Assembly (NCBI GenBank): GCA_947385375.1
Contig: CANDKR010000005.1
Span: 41,907-105,906 of the forward strand
Origin: an uncultured Clostridia bacterium
Lineage (GTDB): Bacteria; Bacillota; Clostridia; TANB77; CAG-508
Length of the DNA: 64,000 bases
Direction: 5' to 3'
The translations under genes were made by a program, and so were the position numbers. Positions 3,678-58,557 of the stretch are shown here, piece after piece. Position 1 is the first letter of the stretch; every line of letters starts with the position of its first letter. Under the pieces are notes generated by a model, which was not told the origin of the DNA, ran no database searches, and saw only the letters and a list, made by a program, of their open reading frames with translations.

Positions 3678-4376
3678 ATGTATAATATTTTAGTTTGTGA
3701 TGATGATAAAGAAATTGTAAAAGCAATTGATATATATTTAAGTAAAGAAGATTATAATGTGCTAAAAGCCTATAATGGCAATGAAGCATTAAATATTATA
3801 AGAAATAATGAAGTTCATCTTGTAATTTTAGATATTATGATGCCAGGTAAAGATGGAATAGAGACTTTAGAAGAAATACGAAAAGAGTTTACAATTCCAG
3901 TGCTTATGCTTTCTGCTAAATCAGAAGATAGTGATAAAATTATAGGATTGGATTTAGGTGCAGATGATTATGTAACAAAACCTTTTAATCCAATGGAATT
4001 AATAGCAAGAGTAAATTCTTGTATAAGAAGATATACAAAACTTGGTTCTATTGATGTAAAAGAAGGCTCTAAAATGTACAAAAGTGGAGATTTGGTTATT
4101 GATGATAATTTAAAAAAAGTAATGGTAGATGGAAATGAAGTAAAACTTACACCAACAGAATACAATATTTTGAAATTTTTATTAAAAAACAAAGGTACAG
4201 TATTTTCAATAGACCAAATTTATGAAAATGTATGGAAAGATGAGGCTTATGCAGCGGAAAATATTATTGCAGTACATATAAGACATATTAGAGAAAAAAT
4301 AGAAATAAATCCAAAAGACCCAAGATATTTAAAAGTAATTTGGGGAATTGGATATAAAATAGAAAAAATAGATTAA
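3678..4376 (+). CDS. two-component response regulator, OmpR/PhoB family (REC + winged-helix)
   Basis: N-terminal receiver (ILVCDDDKEI, LVILDIMMPGKDG), C-terminal trans_reg_C (LTPTEYNILKFLL, RYLKVIWGIGYK). Confidence 0.9.
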   Translation: MYNILVCDDDKEIVKAIDIYLSKEDYNVLKAYNGNEALNIIRNNEVHLVILDIMMPGKDGIETLEEIRKEFTIPVLMLSAKSEDSDKIIGLDLGADDYVTKPFNPMELIARVNSCIRRYTKLGSIDVKEGSKMYKSGDLVIDDNLKKVMVDGNEVKLTPTEYNILKFLLKNKGTVFSIDQIYENVWKDEAYAAENIIAVHIRHIREKIEINPKDPRYLKVIWGIGYKIEKID

Positions 4377-51371: not shown

Positions 51372-53657
51372 ATGGGATTATTAGACGAATTAAATGATAA
51401 ACAATATGAAGCAGTAGTGAAAACAGAAGGTCCTTGCCTTATTATAGCAGGTGCAGGAAGCGGAAAAACAAAGGTATTAACACATAAAATAGCGTATTTG
51501 ATAGAAGAAAAAGATGTGAAACCTTGGGATATTTTGGCCATTACTTTTACCAATAAAGCAGCAAACGAAATGAAGGAAAGGGTTACAAACTTAGTTGGTG
51601 AGATTGCTAATGATATGTGGATTGGAACTTTCCACTCTGTATGCGTTAGGATTTTAAGAAAATTTATTGACAGATTAGGTTTTGAAACTTCTTTTGTTAT
51701 TTTTGATACATCAGACCAAAAAACTATGATGAAACAGATTTTGAAGGCACAAAATATAGATGATAAGCTATTTTCAGATAAAAGTGTTTTATATGAAATT
51801 AGTAATGCAAAAAACGATATGCTAGAGCCTGAAGAGTATGCAGAGAAATATAAAGGTGATTACAGAAAAGAGCAGATTGCTGAGTTATATAAGATATATC
51901 AAAGAAAATTAAAAGAAAATAATGCGATAGATTTTGATGATATTATCAATTTTACAATTAAGATTTTAACAGATAATCCAGATATTTTGGAGTATTATTC
52001 TAATAAATTCAAATATGTTTTAGTAGATGAGTACCAAGATACAAATAAGGCACAATTTACTTTAGTAACATTATTTGCTAGCAGATATGGAAATATAACT
52101 GTTGTTGGAGATAATGACCAAGGTATTTATTCATTTAGAGGTGCTGATATTTCTAATATTTTGAATTTTGAAAAAGATTTTCCAGGAACTACTATTATAA
52201 AATTAGAGCAAAATTATAGATGTACGGGAAGCATCTTAAATGTAGCAAATGAAGTTATTAAGAATAATGAGACGAAGTATGATAAGACCTTATGGACTAA
52301 AAATGAAGTAGGGACTTTGCCTAAGGTGTATAGAGGTTCAGACGAGTATGATGAGGCAAATTACATTGTTGAACAAATAAATTCTTTGAAGAGAGAAGAG
52401 TATTATAAATATTCAGATTTTGCAGTTCTATATAGAATGAATACGCAGTCACGTAGTATAGAGGATATTTTAAGGAGAGAGGATATTCCATATAAAATCG
52501 TAGGTGGTCTAAAATTCTATGAAAGAAAAGAAATTAAAGATCTTATTGCATATTTAAGGTTAATACAAAATCCGGCAGATAACCTAAGTTTAACAAGAAT
52601 TATAAACGAGCCTAAAAGAGGTGTAGGTAAAACAAGTCTAGATAAAGTTGCGGAGATTTCAGATAAAGAAGGAATTTCAATGTTTGAAATAATTAAAGAA
52701 GCTGACAAATATGGGCTAGGTAGAGTATATGCAAATACTAGAGATTTTGTACAAGTTATTGAAGACTTAAGAAATAAAAAAGATAATATGAGTATTTCTG
52801 AGTTAGTTAAAGATACTTTAACAACTTCAGGATATACAAAGGCTTTAGAGCTAGAGGATACTATCGAGGCAGAAAATAGAATACAGAACTTGGACGAGTT
52901 CTTAACAGTAGCAATAGAGTTTGAGGAAGAATCAGCAGAAAACACTTTGGGTGATTTCTTAGAAGGAATGGCATTAAGTTCTGATTTAGATAATATGCAA
53001 GATACAGACGATTCTGTTACATTAATGACATTACATAGTGCCAAAGGTCTAGAGTTCCCAGTGGTATTTTTAGTTGGTATGGAAGAAGGAATTTTTCCAG
53101 GTTATAAATCAATAAATGAGCCACAAGAGTTAGAAGAAGAAAGACGTCTTTGTTATGTTGGTATTACTAGGGCAAAAGAGAAATTACATCTAACTTGTGC
53201 AAGACAAAGAACGATTTATGGTTCAACAAGTTGTAATAATGTTTCAAGATTTTTAAAAGAGATACCAGAGAGTATGCTAGATGGATGTGTAGAGGCATTT
53301 GAAGGAAATAGTAGTAATGACTTGTTTTCTTCTGATAGTAGATTTGAGTGGAGTTATGGGAAAGTTACTTCATATAAAGATAGTTCTATTGGAAGTAGTA
53401 GCAAATCAGCTACACCAGCATTTCAATTTAGAACAGCAGATAGTTTCTTACAAGGATTGGCAAGTCAAAAGAAGGGTAAAGATGTTGATTTATCAGCATA
53501 TAGGTCAGGAGTCAAAGTATTCCATAAGAAATTTGGAGAAGGTGTTATTAGTAAAGTTGAAGCAGAAGGAGAGGACTTGAAGGTGGATATTGATTTTACA
53601 AAGGCAGGACATAAGAGATTGATGGCGAAATTTGCTGGACTAGAAGTAATTGAATAA
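51372..53657 (+). CDS. pcrA: ATP-dependent DNA helicase PcrA (UvrD family)
   Basis: 761 aa; Walker A AGAGSGKT, helicase motifs (DEYQDTN, FRGADISNI, TLHSAKGLEFP, VGITRAKE). Confidence 0.95.
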   Translation: MGLLDELNDKQYEAVVKTEGPCLIIAGAGSGKTKVLTHKIAYLIEEKDVKPWDILAITFTNKAANEMKERVTNLVGEIANDMWIGTFHSVCVRILRKFIDRLGFETSFVIFDTSDQKTMMKQILKAQNIDDKLFSDKSVLYEISNAKNDMLEPEEYAEKYKGDYRKEQIAELYKIYQRKLKENNAIDFDDIINFTIKILTDNPDILEYYSNKFKYVLVDEYQDTNKAQFTLVTLFASRYGNITVVGDNDQGIYSFRGADISNILNFEKDFPGTTIIKLEQNYRCTGSILNVANEVIKNNETKYDKTLWTKNEVGTLPKVYRGSDEYDEANYIVEQINSLKREEYYKYSDFAVLYRMNTQSRSIEDILRREDIPYKIVGGLKFYERKEIKDLIAYLRLIQNPADNLSLTRIINEPKRGVGKTSLDKVAEISDKEGISMFEIIKEADKYGLGRVYANTRDFVQVIEDLRNKKDNMSISELVKDTLTTSGYTKALELEDTIEAENRIQNLDEFLTVAIEFEEESAENTLGDFLEGMALSSDLDNMQDTDDSVTLMTLHSAKGLEFPVVFLVGMEEGIFPGYKSINEPQELEEERRLCYVGITRAKEKLHLTCARQRTIYGSTSCNNVSRFLKEIPESMLDGCVEAFEGNSSNDLFSSDSRFEWSYGKVTSYKDSSIGSSSKSATPAFQFRTADSFLQGLASQKKGKDVDLSAYRSGVKVFHKKFGEGVISKVEAEGEDLKVDIDFTKAGHKRLMAKFAGLEVIE

Positions 53658-53675
53658 TTGTGAATAAAAAAGGGA

Positions 53676-53772
53676 AGGACGAACTGGTGGAGTTCGTCCT
53701 TTTTGTAGCGTCGTAAGAGAGTGGTGGTTTCTCTTACGATAGGTTAGTCATACGTTTGGTGGAATGTATGAC
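53676..53772 (+). terminator. three tandem stem-loops, each with TGGTGG in the loop (53676-53700, 53712-53738, 53747-53772); the first is followed by a T-run and serves as the pcrA terminator
   Basis: AGGACGAACT-ggtgg-AGTTCGTCCT TTTT; CGTAAGAGAG-tggtggttt-CTCTTACG; GTCATAC-gtttggtggaat-GTATGAC. Confidence 0.5.
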
Positions 53773-53833
53773 CTATATATAATTTAATACAAATTTGTTC
53801 AAAAATCAAGTCTTTTTTTATTAATTTTCTTTG

Positions 53834-55426
53834 TTAATTTTTGCTAGTTTGTTCTTCAATATAATCATCATAAGTACATTCTCTAATTATTACATTATTA
53901 TTAGATATATCCACGATTTTATTTGCAACGGTTTGAGTTAATTGGTGGTCGTGTGATGTGAAAATCATAATTCCTTTATATTTTTGCATACCTTCGTTTA
54001 AAGCTGTGATACTTTCCATATCTAAGTGGTTAGTAGGTTCGTCAAACATTAAGAAGTTAGCACCTGAAAGCATTAATTTTGAAAGCACGCATCTAACTTT
54101 TTCACCACCAGATAATACATCAACATTTTTAAGTGCTTCTTCACCAGAGAATAACATTCTGCCTAAGAAACTTCTAACATAAGTCTCATCTGGGTCTTTT
54201 GAGTATTGTCTTAACCAATCAACGATAGTTATTTTTTCAGTGAATAGATAGTTATTATCTTTTGGAAAATAGTCTTTACTAATTGTAGTTCCCCAAACAA
54301 GCTCACCACTATCTGGTTCTATTTCGCCAGCTAATATTTGGAATAACACTGTTTTTGCAATTTCATTATCTGATAGAAGTGCAATTTTATCTTCTCTTTT
54401 AACAGTGAAGCTAATATTATCAAGGATTTTTTCACCATTGATAGTTTTAGAAATGTTTTTTATTTCAAGAACTTCTTTACCTTGTTCTCTGTCAGGTTTA
54501 AAGTCAATATATGGATATTTTCTGTTTGATGGCTTAATTTCATCAAGTTCTATTTTCTCTAAAGATTTTTTCCTAGAAGTAGCTTGCTTAGATTTTGAAG
54601 CATTAGCACTAAATCTAGCAATAAATTCTTGTAATTCTTTAATTCTTTCTTCTTTTTTCTTGTTAGCATCACGCATTTGTTTTAATGCAAGCTGACTAGA
54701 TTCATACCAGAAATCGTAGTTACCAGGATAAACTTTGATTTTACCAAAGTCAACATCTGCGATGTGTGTACAAACTTTATTTAAGAAATATCTATCGTGA
54801 GATACAACAATAACTGTATTTTCAAAATCGATAAGGAAGTCTTGAAGCCAGTTAATTGTTTTGATGTCTAAGTCGTTAGTAGGCTCGTCTAATAGAAGTA
54901 CATCAGGGTTACCAAATAAGCTCTGAGCAAGAAGCACTTTTACTTTGTCTTTTGCTTCAATTTCACTCATATATTTATAGTGTAAATCAACATCAATACC
55001 TAAGTCATTAAGCATTTTTGCTGCGTCTGCTTCTGCATTCCAACCATCAAGTTCAGCAAATCTTTCTTCAAGTTTTGCAGCACGCATTCCATCTTCTTCA
55101 GAAAAGTCTGGTTTTGCGTAGATAGCGTCTTTTTCTTTCATGATTTTATAAAGTTCACTATTACCCATCATAACAGTGTCTAAAACTGTATAGCCTTCAA
55201 AAGCATAGTGATCCTGTTTTAAAACAGATAATCTCTCACCTTTATCTAAAACAACTTCACCTTTGTTTGGCTCAATTTCTCCTGATAATATCTTTAAAAA
55301 TGTTGATTTACCAGCACCATTAGCACCGATTAAACCATAGCAATTTCCTTTTGTAAACTTGATATTTACATCTTCAAATAAAACTCTTTTACCAAATCTA
55401 AGTGTAACTCCACTTGAAAGTAGCAT
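53834..55426 (-). CDS. ABC-F family ATP-binding cassette protein (two ABC domains, no TMD)
   Basis: 530 aa; two Walker A (GANGAGKST, and a second after the linker), two LSGGE signature motifs; AGGAGG RBS. Confidence 0.85.
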   Translation of the reverse strand: MLLSSGVTLRFGKRVLFEDVNIKFTKGNCYGLIGANGAGKSTFLKILSGEIEPNKGEVVLDKGERLSVLKQDHYAFEGYTVLDTVMMGNSELYKIMKEKDAIYAKPDFSEEDGMRAAKLEERFAELDGWNAEADAAKMLNDLGIDVDLHYKYMSEIEAKDKVKVLLAQSLFGNPDVLLLDEPTNDLDIKTINWLQDFLIDFENTVIVVSHDRYFLNKVCTHIADVDFGKIKVYPGNYDFWYESSQLALKQMRDANKKKEERIKELQEFIARFSANASKSKQATSRKKSLEKIELDEIKPSNRKYPYIDFKPDREQGKEVLEIKNISKTINGEKILDNISFTVKREDKIALLSDNEIAKTVLFQILAGEIEPDSGELVWGTTISKDYFPKDNNYLFTEKITIVDWLRQYSKDPDETYVRSFLGRMLFSGEEALKNVDVLSGGEKVRCVLSKLMLSGANFLMFDEPTNHLDMESITALNEGMQKYKGIMIFTSHDHQLTQTVANKIVDISNNNVIIRECTYDDYIEEQTSKN

Positions 55427-55458
55427 TTCAAAATCCTCCTAAAATTTATGTTTAAGTC

Positions 55459-55492
55459 TATTTATTATACCTTATTTATTAGAATATTGCAA
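55459..55492 (-). promoter_or_regulatory. 34-bp repeat copy 1 = ABC-F promoter (TTGCAA-N17-TATAAT on minus strand)
   Basis: sequence TATTTATTATACCTTATTTATTAGAATATTGCAA repeated exactly at 55999..56032; the reverse complement contains -35/-10 hexamers about 30 nt upstream of the ABC-F RBS. Confidence 0.55.
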
Positions 55493-55791
55493 GCATTGAA
55501 GATGGGGAGTTTGGTTATTAATTTTAGAGAATAAAAAAGTGATATGCGTTCCTACCGCATATCACGTGCAATATAATGTCTGGATACATTTTTAATGCTA
55601 ATGTTATTATAACATCTTTTGTTATTTTATGCAAGCATTTTATTTTTTATCCTGATTTAGCTTAAAATGATATATGAAATTAAAGTGAACATTTTGTTTT
55701 TATATTATAGAAATGTGTTGCATTATATTCCATAATGTTGTATACTAGCGATATCCTTTTATGAGGAAATCTCAAGAAAGGAGGTGCATAT

Positions 55792-55887
55792 ATGTCTGGA
55801 TATATGTTGGTATATATCTTGCTTCAGAAGATTGAAAAATTGGAAGAAGAGTTGAGAAAATACCAAAATAGCGAAGAGAAAAACTGA
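55792..55887 (+). CDS. 31-aa small ORF (MSGYMLVYILLQKIEKLEEELRKYQNSEEKN) with strong RBS
   Basis: AAAGGAGGTG 7 nt before ATG; followed by an intrinsic terminator at 55898-55927; below the ORF-track length cutoff. Confidence 0.35.
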   Translation: MSGYMLVYILLQKIEKLEEELRKYQNSEEKN

Positions 55888-55897
55888 TGTATCAGTT

Positions 55898-55927
55898 CAG
55901 AGCAGTTCCTACCTGCTCTGTTTTTTT
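55898..55927 (+). terminator. intrinsic terminator CAGAGCAG-ttcctacc-TGCTCTG + T7
   Basis: hairpin plus 7-T run 10 nt after the small ORF stop; loop identical to that of hairpin 55539-55565. Confidence 0.55.
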
Positions 55928-55998
55928 GAAATAAAAAAAGATATGTGTCATCACCACATATCAGATACTACATTATGAACGGCTAGCTCATTAATGTA

Positions 55999-56032
55999 TA
56001 TTTATTATACCTTATTTATTAGAATATTGCAA
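55999..56032 (-). repeat. 34-bp repeat copy 2 (second copy of the ABC-F promoter sequence)
   Basis: identical to 55459..55492; points leftward toward hairpin 55940-55962, which is followed on the minus strand by a T-run. Confidence 0.55.
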
Positions 56033-56073
56033 CAAAAAAGATGGCATTTAAGCCATCTTTAAAACTTTTTATA

Positions 56074-56502
56074 TTAATCGTCCATGCTTCTTCCATCTTC
56101 GTGAAATACTGGTTGAATAGATGAATCACTTAGAATTAGTGGGGTACTTTTTGAAGCTTCTGACATTACAAGTATTCTACATTGTAAAGCAAGCATAAGT
56201 AAAGCTGTTGCATCTTTTGCTGTTCCCCAAGGCTTTTTATCTTTGTCAAAAGCAAGTTCTTTTGCATAATAAAAAGAAGATGGATGTTGTTTTAAGTAGT
56301 GATATGGATATGTTTGCCCTAATAAATATTTTAATTCTAAACTGCCATTACCGCGAAAGTATTTTGGCTGTTGATACTTGTAATTTTTCTCCACTTACTG
56401 TTGTATATGTATAAAATCTTTTTGCAGTGGTATCAATATTTCTTTTTGCTAAATCGTCTAATGATTTTCTTGATAATTTTTCTTTTCTAAATTTTTCTGC
56501 CA
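56074..56502 (-). pseudogene. hypothetical protein (about 142 aa if joined), frameshift in an A5/T5 run at 56384-56388
   Basis: N-terminal ORF MAEKFRKEKLSRKSLDDLAKRN... with GGGGGAAAA RBS stops after 51 codons; the 106-aa ORF continues in the +1 frame; removing one A joins ...TVSGE-NYKYQQPKYF. Confidence 0.45.
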
Positions 56503-56664
56503 TATTTTATTTTCCCCCTAAATTAAAAATACTTCTTTATTATATCATGTTTACATAAGAAAGTCAAACAGTTGTAAAGAAAACGTAACACCTATGTAAT
56601 TGAAGTAGAAAAAATAAAGAGATATAATAATTATGTAAAATTATATTTACAAAGGAATAAGAGT

Positions 56665-58557
56665 ATGGCTGCACCAGATAAACGAATGGGAAAAGAGGAT
56701 TTAGCAAGTTTCTTAAAACAACAATTTCCTAAAAGTAATGAAGTAAATAATTTACTAGAACAAATAATAGCTAGTAAAAATTCGATGGAAAAAGCAATGG
56801 GTGAAGAAATTCCGTCTTTTTATGGTACAATTTCTAGACTTATAAGTGCACATACTGTGAATGGTATTTCAGACTGGGTTAATAGTAATGGACAAGTTAA
56901 TATAAATCGTATAAACAAAGCAGCTGAAATAGCTAAAAAAGAGTTTGAAGTAAAAAAAATACAAGAAGAAAACGAGAGACAAGGACGAGAGCAGATTAAA
57001 AGTAACTTTGAAAATATAGATAATAAAGAAATAGAAGAGAAAATAAGTAAAATTGATTTTGACCATATAACAAAGGATGAATATATACAAGTAGCTAAAT
57101 GGTTTGACAAATTGTCTAAAGACCAACAAAAAAAAGTAAATAATAGAACAGATGAGATTATGGGGACGGCTGATGTTTACAAGATGTTGGAAAAAGCTTT
57201 GGATGATCCTTCTATACTGGATAGTCTAGAGTTTCAAACAATGTTAGAAAAGTTTCCTGATATAAAACAAAGATTTTTTCCTAATGGTAGTTTAGACTTT
57301 GAAGCAGTTAAGGATTTTAGAAACAAAAAGAATATTTTAAGTGGACAGTTAGTGGAAGAATCTCAAGAAAGAAAGTTAACAGAGCAAGAAATTAAACAGA
57401 GAATAGAAAAATTTGGTTTAAAACCAGAAGCTTTTAATATAGTAGAACTCAAGAAAAAACTTGATAGTGGAGAATTGGGTTTAGAAGTTAGAGATAATAA
57501 TGCTAGGATTGATGAGCAGGTTCGAAAAGATTTAGAACATCGAGAAGCGGAACAAGAAATGGTACGACAAGAAGAGGATATTCAAAAAGATAAAATGGTG
57601 AAAGTTGCTACTGAAATTGCAACAGGTGATACAAAAGCAGTATATGAACTTGAAGAAGATTTTACTGCTATGTTTGAAGATGCTATGGATAGTATGATGG
57701 AAGGTGCTATTGATTTAGCCGAAGAATTAACTCCAGATATGGATGGTGTTCATATTGGAGAAGGATTTATGTATGCTATAGAAGGTGAAGAGCGTGGACA
57801 GGCAGGTATAGATGGACAGGAAATTGGTGAAGCAGAGGATACTATAATAGGGCAAGTTGGCGAAGTGGCAGAAATGATGCAACAGGGAGAAGATAGAACA
57901 GGTGAGGAAGTTAGACAAGATGTAGCAAGAGATACATTGGATAGAAGAACAGGACAAGAGGATAAAACACAAAATAGCGATGAAATGGCAAGAGGGCAAG
58001 TTGCACCAAATGCAATGGGAATTATTGGACAATTACAAAATGCAGCAAGAGAAGAGCCTAACGATTATACACAAGAAGATACATATCAAACACCTACTTT
58101 AGACAATCTAGAAGAGGATAAGAAAGGTGGAATACTAGGATTTTTCTCTAAGATAAAAGAGGCAATACAAGCAAGGTTTGCTAAAAAGCCTGAACAGAAG
58201 AGATTAAATCCAAGTAGTGAACAAAGAACAGATGAGAATGGTTGGAATATTACAACTTATGATGGTAATGGAAAAGACTTAGTACCAAAAAGTACAGGAA
58301 TTAGAAATGCTATGGTAAGGTTTGCAGAAAATACTATTGGCAAAGTTGCAAAATTAACTACAAACGCACCACGTTCAAGTGAGCCAATTAATACACCTTA
58401 TGTAATTCCAACAAATGTACAAAGTAGAGAAGATAAACAGCAAGTTGTTACAAAAGATAAAACAAACCAATGGGCAGTTGACCCATCTAGATTATCACCT
58501 TTAGAACATGGTAAAAAAGATAAAGATGAGCAAGTTCAAGGTGATGGGGAAAGATAG
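56665..58557 (+). CDS. large acidic hypothetical protein (630 aa, Glu/Asp/Gln-rich, no TM)
   Basis: single long ORF with RBS; no recognisable catalytic motif. Confidence 0.5.
   Translation: MAAPDKRMGKEDLASFLKQQFPKSNEVNNLLEQIIASKNSMEKAMGEEIPSFYGTISRLISAHTVNGISDWVNSNGQVNINRINKAAEIAKKEFEVKKIQEENERQGREQIKSNFENIDNKEIEEKISKIDFDHITKDEYIQVAKWFDKLSKDQQKKVNNRTDEIMGTADVYKMLEKALDDPSILDSLEFQTMLEKFPDIKQRFFPNGSLDFEAVKDFRNKKNILSGQLVEESQERKLTEQEIKQRIEKFGLKPEAFNIVELKKKLDSGELGLEVRDNNARIDEQVRKDLEHREAEQEMVRQEEDIQKDKMVKVATEIATGDTKAVYELEEDFTAMFEDAMDSMMEGAIDLAEELTPDMDGVHIGEGFMYAIEGEERGQAGIDGQEIGEAEDTIIGQVGEVAEMMQQGEDRTGEEVRQDVARDTLDRRTGQEDKTQNSDEMARGQVAPNAMGIIGQLQNAAREEPNDYTQEDTYQTPTLDNLEEDKKGGILGFFSKIKEAIQARFAKKPEQKRLNPSSEQRTDENGWNITTYDGNGKDLVPKSTGIRNAMVRFAENTIGKVAKLTTNAPRSSEPINTPYVIPTNVQSREDKQQVVTKDKTNQWAVDPSRLSPLEHGKKDKDEQVQGDGER

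Follow-up and report, generated by a model that had tools for sequence, protein, structure and literature searches.

The 647-nt spacer at positions 55427-56073 of a 64,000-nt stretch of DNA from an uncultured Clostridia bacterium (contig CANDKR010000005.1; this whole stretch is called the window, and all coordinates are positions in it) probably holds, as judged from its sequence, a module of a small peptide gene and an antisense small RNA (sRNA) of the type I toxin-antitoxin kind, with a logic like that of the par locus and with two extra copies of sRNA-gene parts. The narrower statement, that a 31-aa peptide, p31, is encoded together with a cognate sRNA that would recognize its mRNA at two separate sites, is very probable, while the further step, taken by analogy, that p31 is a toxin falls a little short of an even bet. 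A sequence-only reading of the same DNA had drawn attention to an exact promoter repeat, three hairpins, a common loop and a 31-aa open reading frame (ORF), all of which were recovered where it had placed them. Two elements had been overlooked, a further promoter (PA) and a direct repeat linking 55566-55592 to 55783-55808 (GTGCAATATAATGTCTGGATACATTTT / GTGC-ATAT-ATGTCTGGATATATGTT). In the window, which has a GC content of 30.6%, the parts of the module are:

55718-55746, plus strand: p31 mRNA promoter, TTGCAT (55718-55723)-N17-TATACT (55741-55746), read from the sequence, with a predicted start near 55753.
55753-55791, plus strand: p31 5′ untranslated region (UTR), with the Shine-Dalgarno sequence (SD) AAAGGAGGUG at 55777-55786 and the anti-SD elements UCCUUUU and UCUCA.
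55792-55887, plus strand: p31, the gene of the 31-aa peptide MSGYMLVYILLQKIEKLEEELRKYQNSEEKN, with AAAGGAGGTG 5 nt before the ATG.
55884-55895, plus strand: mini-hairpin at the stop codon of the p31 mRNA, followed by Term1.
55898-55905/55913-55920, plus strand: stem of Term1, the p31 mRNA terminator, with loop UUCCUAC at 55906-55912 and U-run at 55921-55927, from a terminator scan.
55634-55606, minus strand: PA, the promoter of sRNA-A, TTGCAT (55634-55629)-N17-TATAAT (55611-55606) with a TGn extended -10, read from the sequence.
55599 to 55532, minus strand: sRNA-A, about 68 nt (predicted), with its target-recognition part at 55566-55599 and hairpin A as terminator.
55565-55539, minus strand: hairpin A, terminator of sRNA-A, with loop ttcctac on the plus strand and GUAGGAA in the RNA, and a U-run at 55538-55532.
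55999-56032, minus strand: P2, the native promoter of sRNA-B, with -35 at 56032-56027 and -10 at 56009-56004.
55997 to 55933, minus strand: sRNA-B, about 65 nt (predicted), in the canonical convergent position, with hairpin B as terminator and a fold z of -3.35.
55962-55940, minus strand: hairpin B, terminator of sRNA-B, with loop tcatcac on the plus strand and GUGAUGA in the RNA.
56037-56060, both strands: bidirectional terminator from the terminator scan, which ends the upstream 106-aa ORF and forms the right-hand edge of the module.

The 31-aa ORF is a real, conserved gene, and the sequence-only reading, which had credited it with a perfect ribosome-binding site (RBS), is borne out here by homologues, by coding constraint and by the number of modules in the family. 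An exhaustive phmmer search of 1.84e9 representative sequences returned 11 homologues, 61-79% identical over the full 31 aa (E 2e-5 to 8e-4) and most of them ending in KN; back-translated searches yielded 69 further loci from gut and rumen metagenomes, and the family now comprises 58 distinct modules. Across these peptides (30-32 aa, consensus MxGYMLIWILLQKIEKLEEELNTYKN..KN), residues L6, L10, Q12, I14, L17, E19, E20, L21 and Y24 are invariant, and the hydrophobic positions L6, L10, I14, L17, L21 and Y24 follow a heptad pattern. Variable columns were counted by codon position as 12/8/17, the third being highest, pairwise codon differences were synonymous in 2789 cases and non-synonymous in 2418, and the other two reading frames were closed in 37 of 37 unique cores. 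AlphaFold2, run on the single sequence, predicted one helix over residues 2-30 (predicted local distance difference test score, 94.8). The family had no significant match in Pfam, NCBIfam, PDB or PHROGs, p31 itself gave weak sub-threshold matches to coiled-coil segments (for example MerR_2), and the peptide motif was not found in the searchable literature.

The p31 mRNA is conserved beyond its ORF. The -10 and -35 columns of its promoter are conserved in 44 aligned modules; the window copy lies below the threshold of the consensus scanner. In the minimum-free-energy fold of the mRNA the SD is paired (z = -3.9, whole mRNA), and the anti-SD and SD segments covary across the family (UCUUU:AAAGG, CCCUU:AAGGG, UCCCU:AGGGA). 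Compensatory changes were likewise found in the stem of Term1 among homologues (GAGCAG/CTGCTC, GGACAG/CTGTCC, GAGTAG/CTACTC). In the mini-hairpin at the stop codon, compared between the window and loci L089-L100 (our own numbering), the 3′ arm changes in step with which stop codon is used: cTGA..TCAg, cTAG..CTAg, cTAA..TTAg. One strain, L088, has one more A in the A-run that closes the ORF (equivalent of 55880-55884), by which the final codon is altered and the peptide becomes about 19 aa longer; similarly extended ORFs or out-of-frame ATGs were seen in L141, L162, L115 and L142, which suggests occasional decay in the family.

Alignment of seven loci, and then of about 40, gave a fixed order of parts from module to module: plus-strand promoter, 5′ UTR with anti-SD, SD, ORF, stop-codon mini-hairpin, two terminator hairpins and sRNA promoter. 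The mRNA terminator is GC-rich, CAGAGCAG-loop-CTGCTCTG with a T-run and compensatory variants. The sRNA terminator consists of an A-run followed by GATATGTG-loop-CACATATC, next to which lie about 35 variable nt and, on the minus strand, a promoter near the consensus TTGACA-N17-TGcTATACT in about 40 modules; PA aligns with the same consensus. The second hairpin and the minus-strand promoter together form a convergent sRNA gene of 65-75 nt, and P2 and hairpin B of the window occupy exactly that position, P2 lying at the site of the sRNA promoter in every homologous module. Convergent promoters for peptide mRNA and sRNA were present in all aligned modules; in the window, sRNA-B is convergent and sRNA-A is divergent. 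The genomic contexts of the modules are scattered and unrelated. A single example has been placed, in a Clostridia genome, the others being in uncultured gut or rumen metagenome assemblies. No member of the peptide family was found in 2.9 million viral contigs, distant blastn of the spacer against phage and plasmid collections gave no DNA match, and the exact 26-mer core of the promoter repeat had no match in JGI metagenome contigs.

Two RNA-RNA contact sites covary across these modules. At the first, the 5′ ~35 nt of each sRNA show complementarity to the mRNA of the same module over a stretch that begins at the SD end, takes in the start codon and reaches about codon 6-8. Duplexes at this site had a mean energy of -30.9 kcal/mol for cognate pairs versus -18.5 for non-cognate pairs, and the cognate partner was among the top two in 29 of 40 unique modules. 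For at least 10 variants of codons 2-3, the sRNA carries the matching change (TCT GGA, TCA GGC, AGC GGG, AGT AGC, ACA GGC, ACC AGT, ACT AGC, AAC GGC, AAC GGA and AAT AGC). Counted in a fixed register, a mean of 10.5 of 14 positions were paired, versus 9.15 ± 0.20 (maximum 9.9) in 2000 partner shuffles, a count thrown out of register in one subgroup (L093 and L104-L112) by a 2-nt shift in the sRNAs; the energy-based analysis is independent of register. At the second site, the loops of the mRNA and sRNA terminators carry the same 6-8 nt on the plus strand and are therefore complementary as RNAs, which accounts for the identical loop picked out by the sequence-only reading. At least 6 nt are common to both loops in 39 of 40 modules (non-cognate mean, 4.0 nt), with at least seven loop classes: CTCTAC, CTCCAC, TCATCAC, TCACTAC, TTCTCC, TTCCTAC and TCTTCAC. 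The two terminator stems (CAGAGCAG vs GATATGTG) are unrelated to each other and constant; the loops alone vary, and they vary together.

An nhmmer profile built without the window found exactly two sRNA genes in the 64 kb, at 55640-55523 (E 3.8e-15) and 56027-55921 (E 1.6e-14), and no further module or sRNA copy within the window. The first is sRNA-A, and with PA present hairpin A is the terminator of an sRNA gene of its own. It is the antisense RNA cognate to the p31 mRNA, whose translation initiation region (TIR) is GTGCATATATGTCTGGATATATG. The duplex of sRNA-A with this TIR reaches -29.6 kcal/mol (0 of 300 shuffles were as good; cofold gain, -18.0 kcal/mol) and runs from the SD end over the AUG into the first codons; all 14 of 14 positions pair at ATG+11, and the terminator loop GUAGGAA is perfectly complementary to the loop UUCCUAC of the mRNA terminator. 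The second gene, sRNA-B, agrees with the proposal of the sequence-only reading that the second promoter copy gives rise to a short minus-strand RNA that terminates after about 65 nt, as predicted from P2, hairpin B and the profile match. As a partner of p31, sRNA-B was rejected at both contact sites: its duplex with the TIR (-16.5 kcal/mol) lies within the range of shuffles with a cofold gain of only -2.8 kcal/mol, 9 of 14 positions pair at ATG+11, and its loop GUGAUGA is not complementary to UUCCUAC. It is a paralogue with a different specificity, an orphan without a target in the window. Its 5′ part fits start regions of the ATG-AAC-GGC type, the best-fitting TIRs being those of L140, L129 and L131, and its cognate is predicted to be a peptide mRNA with ATGAACGGCTA at the start and a UCAUCAC terminator loop.

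One further ORF in this part of the spacer proved not to be a gene:

55576-55665, plus strand: apparent 29-aa ORF, whose first 17 nt are the plus-strand image of the anti-start-codon segment of sRNA-A.

The ORF stems from an 11-nt identity, ATGTCTGGATA, in which the antisense segment of sRNA-A appears at the DNA level; its first 17 nt belong to a repeat (D4) of 55576-55592 and 55792-55808. It was rejected as a second peptide or type I toxin, having no SD and no conservation as an ORF; in L102, the closest module, the equivalent segment is ATGTCTGGATACATTTAA, with a stop after 5 codons.

The mechanism that we propose would operate as follows. An mRNA of about 175 nt would be transcribed on the plus strand from the promoter of p31, with its SD partly sequestered by the local anti-SD. 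From PA, 150 nt upstream, sRNA-A would be transcribed divergently on the minus strand; its terminator loop GUAGGAA would kiss the loop UUCCUAC of the mRNA terminator, and its 5′ ~30 nt would pair with the mRNA from the SD end through the AUG to about codon 6, occluding the ribosome-binding site and holding the p31 mRNA silent. sRNA-B, transcribed from P2, would have the same scaffold with a different address at both sites, and may be a relic, or may protect against a related module located elsewhere.

Fst, the toxin of par, is 33 aa long, and the par sRNA is about 65 nt. In par of E. faecalis pAD1, where RNA I is the Fst toxin mRNA and RNA II the antitoxin, the promoters face each other and the RNAs kiss first at their terminator loops; the 5′ end of the sRNA matches the initiation site by complementarity, owing to direct repeats in the DNA, and the SD is sequestered by an intramolecular stem (PMC7472228). 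The present module resembles par in its small ORF (31 aa), its ~65-nt sRNA, its facing promoters and its two separate contact regions, terminator stem-loops and direct repeats at the initiation region, as well as in the sequestration of the SD by an intramolecular 5′ structure, here a predicted fold with covarying pairs. It differs from par in several respects. Whereas par has one shared bidirectional terminator, so that complementarity of the loops is automatic, here two adjacent, unrelated terminators are present and their loops covary; par has DRa and DRb, and here there is one direct repeat of ~27 nt. Fst-like peptides have a hydrophobic transmembrane domain with a PXXXG(C) motif, followed by a C-terminal tail that is charged. 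The peptide here lacks a transmembrane-length domain and the PXXXG motif (hhalign of the p31 family against Fst gave a probability of 0.1%), the cognate sRNA in the window is divergent rather than convergent, and Rfam, searched with 55440-56070, gave a best E of 1.5, all scores being far below gathering. We consider that the module works like par without being a member of the Fst family, a putative variant of the type I toxin-antitoxin kind.

In SprA1/SprA1AS of S. aureus, which encodes PepA1, the antisense RNA gene adjoins the toxin gene and translation is repressed in trans, a non-overlapping 5′ domain of SprA1AS pairing with the ribosome-binding site and start codon. An adjacent antisense gene and repression in trans at the RBS and start codon by a non-overlapping 5′ domain are thus points of likeness, while the 3′ ends of these two genes overlap and PepA1 is a membrane peptide; we know of no covarying loop-loop code described for that pair. 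PepA1 has been shown with the Fst family (PMC7472228). The 3′-overlapping type I systems of B. subtilis (bsrG/SR4 and txpA/RatA) and C. difficile (CD2517.1-RCd8 and others) consist of convergent toxin mRNA and antitoxin sRNA, with small peptides, and are chromosomal and multi-copy (PMC3834814; PMC6563280). In the type I systems described for Clostridia, the antisense RNAs overlap their targets over long stretches and the toxins are hydrophobic, with ~50 aa (PMC6563280). A convergent mRNA/sRNA pair, a small peptide and a chromosomal, multi-copy occurrence are shared with these 3′-overlapping systems. They differ in having long overlapping complementarity that acts mainly through mRNA decay, and hydrophobic toxins of 38-59 aa with lysine-rich or charged tails, whereas the two transcripts of the present module have no overlap and would recognize each other through two short trans-acting sites.

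The left copy of the promoter repeat lies in front of the neighboring gene:

55459-55492, minus strand: P1, an sRNA-type promoter that would now drive ybiT, with -35 at 55492-55487 and -10 at 55469-55464, identified as the repeat of P2 and by promoter scan.
53834-55426, minus strand: ybiT, YbiT-type ABC-F gene of 530 aa (Pfam ABC_tran/ABC_tran_Xtn), a neighbor outside the module.

The segments 55459-55492 and 55999-56032 show 100% identity across their 34 nt, the match extending to 42 nt at 93%, and each contains a minus-strand TTGCAA-N17-TATAAT. A 33-mer of the repeat had exactly 2 matches in the window with 3 mismatches allowed (0 expected from 100 shuffles), and terminator-like sites numbered 5 in 1 kb versus 0.2 expected from shuffles. 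From P1, with a predicted start near 55457, the ybiT leader would be ~30 nt, with AGGAGG at 55440-55435; the distance from the -10 to the ybiT ATG is 38 nt, and short, unrelated leaders were also seen in relatives. P1 and the first transcribed bases, AAATAGACTTAAAC, align with the sRNA promoters of the family and their conserved 5′ ends, AATAATAGCTTAAG, and weak similarity of P1 to the surroundings of P2 also runs on upstream (CCATCTT, read from the sequence). After about +12 the sequence is that of the ybiT leader and SD. P1 would thus be one more duplicate of the sRNA promoter, joined to the ybiT leader at about +12, and ybiT would now be transcribed from a co-opted sRNA promoter. In more than 30 related species (including L006-L051), the order uvrD > ... 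ybiT > tex lies on one strand, whereas here ybiT is inverted relative to both; we infer that the gene became joined to a copy of the sRNA promoter in the rearrangement by which ybiT was turned around.

Several observations weigh against a type I toxin-antitoxin module. p31, at 31 aa, has the small size (less than 60 aa) of type I toxins, with a single helix, a hydrophobic N-terminus and a charged heptad region. Its hydrophobic run, however, spans ~8-9 consecutive residues (YMLVYILL) before a charged, heptad-patterned helix, and there is no segment of transmembrane length, unlike in typical type I toxins. The mean column identity of the peptide family is 78%, a conservation higher than expected of type I toxins. 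The cognate sRNA-A is divergent and upstream of p31, away from the canonical convergent position, which makes the locus a mosaic; the single sRNA of L102 combines a hairpin of the B type with a 5′ part of the A type, and the sRNAs of the window are mosaics relative to it. The p31 mRNA and sRNA-A do not overlap, so that regulation would act entirely in trans. The convergent sRNA is a poor match in 3 of 40 modules, sRNA-B of the window included, and the covariation statistics, being drawn from related, non-independent sequences, are inflated. In an alternative account, the RNA logic would be the same and p31 would be a small regulatory or structural coiled-coil peptide gated by the sRNA, with no part in addiction or defense. 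The absence of a transmembrane-length segment favors this account, as do the strongly conserved heptad positions, the single helix from AlphaFold2, the coiled-coil character of the weak matches and the lack of the module in the viral contigs searched. The two-site architecture, the sequestered SD and the orphan sRNA copies are, on the other hand, typical of type I loci, as are the scattered contexts and the occasional frameshifted or extended ORFs, and it is hard to see why a harmless peptide would need a dedicated, highly specific, constitutively promoted antisense RNA; we hold the regulated peptide to be a serious but minority possibility. It is very unlikely that the identical loops and the repeat at the start region survive from past duplications and have no RNA-RNA function, the short RNAs being terminators joined to spurious promoters. 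The sequences are related by common ancestry, and promoter-like hexamers are common in this AT-rich region (9 found versus 6.4 expected in a consensus scan). Leftovers of duplication would not explain why loops change jointly across at least seven classes on constant, unrelated stems, why TIR and sRNA change jointly through at least 10 codon variants, including the synonymous serine codons TCT, TCA, AGC and AGT, or why the sRNA promoter stands near the full consensus TTGACA-N17-TGnTATACT in about 40 modules.

The exact 34-nt direct repeats, 540 bp apart, could also be taken as the target duplication or att sites of a 540-bp miniature mobile insertion that landed in the ybiT promoter, and the module does occur in many unrelated contexts and is absent from the syntenic site of relatives. 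The right-hand repeat is nevertheless the sRNA promoter site of the family, and the left-hand one aligns with the same promoter family down to the first transcribed bases, so that the repeats are functional paralogues and not scars. Other modules have no flanking direct repeats, the lone exception, L091, being a second sRNA gene; terminal inverted repeats and a recombinase are lacking, as is a DNA match in the phage and plasmid collections. No empty site was found: the gene layout was the same in 39 of 39 contigs of the species that were read, and the spacer was 647 or 648 nt in all eight loci fetched (L001-L005 and L086-L088, which represent five distinct ENA records, three having been returned twice), six of which (four distinct records), compared base by base, differed by at most 1 single-nucleotide polymorphism (SNP), or by 1 SNP and a 1-nt indel. 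A mobile insertion is accordingly improbable, and the sequence-only reading, which had offered a tiny repeat-bounded insertion carrying a peptide gene as its fallback, came near the truth in seeing a self-contained peptide unit and erred in the nature of the repeats. Its leading proposal, control of the ABC-F gene by an attenuator or an sRNA, is contradicted. Antibiotic-resistance (ARE) ABC-F genes such as vmlR, vga(A), lsa and msr are controlled by leaders and attenuators, and hairpins with a short RNA and a small ORF beside an ABC-F gene might be read in the same way, the more so as an identical promoter precedes the gene and the short RNA and read-through would be stopped by hairpin A just before P1. 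The likeness ends with hairpins and a short ORF adjoining an ABC-F gene. The protein is of the YbiT type, matching E. coli YbiT in the PDB over residues 1-525 (E 4e-167) and the YbiT-type NCBIfam model PRK15064 at 684 bits, whereas the Vga, Lsa, Msr, Sal and OptrA models scored 193-279 bits, below cut-offs of 680-1450; its identity of 66-92% across Clostridia, Lachnospiraceae and even a Cohnella fits a housekeeping factor. A long leader with terminator/antiterminator alternatives and a leader peptide on the same strand would mark an ARE ABC-F attenuator; here the ~30-nt leader leaves no room for alternative structures, all hairpins lie upstream of P1, and the 31-aa ORF is on the strand opposite to ybiT. 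Complementarity of sRNA-A and sRNA-B to the ybiT 5′ end was at chance level (shuffles doing as well: 0.44 and 0.53). The module occurs at 82 other loci with no ABC-F gene nearby at any, and the ybiT loci of 80 related species had the module at none, with one weak sRNA match 2.4 kb away in L041 and no nucleotide similarity to the spacer. On the YbiT type, the short leader, the opposite-strand ORF and the chance-level pairing, an antibiotic-sensing leader or ABC-F attenuator was rejected, and control of ybiT by these elements is hardly credible.

The type I toxin-antitoxin reading can be carried further. More speculatively, the modules might constitute a widespread type I toxin-antitoxin family of gut and rumen bacteria, par-like and so far undescribed, with a two-part RNA address that diversifies and is reassorted from one module to another, orphan antitoxins that confer cross-immunity, a coiled-coil effector, and P1 domesticated for ybiT; this extended picture is doubtful as a whole. 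Its address would consist of a kissing-loop code and a code in the start-codon region, and its effector would perhaps be soluble or peripheral rather than membrane-spanning, details that we offer just as tentatively. Orphan sRNA genes have parallels in the family: second sRNA genes of another specificity lie directly behind the cognate sRNA of complete modules in L096 (1196-1326; L096-99) and L166 (495-612), and in both the loop and 5′ part match other module classes, as a parallel to sRNA-B.

The peptide and the sRNA each represent a new family, absent from Pfam, NCBIfam and Rfam. With two contact sites covarying on fixed scaffolds, the ~40 module variants provide a ready set of orthogonal sRNA/mRNA pairs, which would be useful for the study of type I antitoxin specificity and as synthetic translational switches in Firmicutes. 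If p31 is toxic, the definition of a type I toxin would be broadened to include peptides without a membrane-spanning segment. The apparent co-option of P1 would be a case in which an essential-type gene, ybiT, was re-promoted, after a rearrangement, by a copy of a selfish module's promoter.

Some minor observations concern the family and the surroundings of the spacer. In L091, positions 4030-4190 hold a paralogous sRNA gene with the common promoter and hairpin scaffold, convergent to a gene for a 164-aa protein whose terminator loop, GGTCAA, is the sRNA loop on the plus strand; the sRNA scaffold may therefore partner genes besides that of the 31-aa peptide. The source lineage is one of uncultured Clostridia, and its nearest GTDB representatives include a Candidatus Scatovivens metagenome-assembled genome. 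Between ybiT and tex lie three ORFs that are absent from the loci of relatives, of 106 aa (56074-56394, minus strand), 51 aa (56348-56503, minus strand) and 630 aa (56665-58557, plus strand); the 51-aa ORF overlaps the 106-aa ORF and the pair looks like one frameshifted gene, while the 106-aa and 630-aa ORFs matched no Pfam, NCBIfam, PADLOC or PHROG family. On the other side of ybiT, uvrD is one intact 761-aa ORF in the window, and the equivalent of 51372-53657 in L001-L005 is annotated as a pair of genes, of 282 and 496 aa, that overlap. Inside this gene (uvrD/pcrA), 53107-53202 on the plus strand gave a sub-threshold match to Rfam RF03531 n00280 (53.7 bits versus a gathering score of 65.2; E 2.7e-7), a family that bears the description 'Clostridioides difficile sRNA included into helicase gene'. 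The spacer at 53665-53775, where uvrD and ybiT converge, has three successive hairpins with TGGTGG in every loop (ctggtggag, gtggtggtt and tttggtggaat), and the first of them is a bidirectional terminator.

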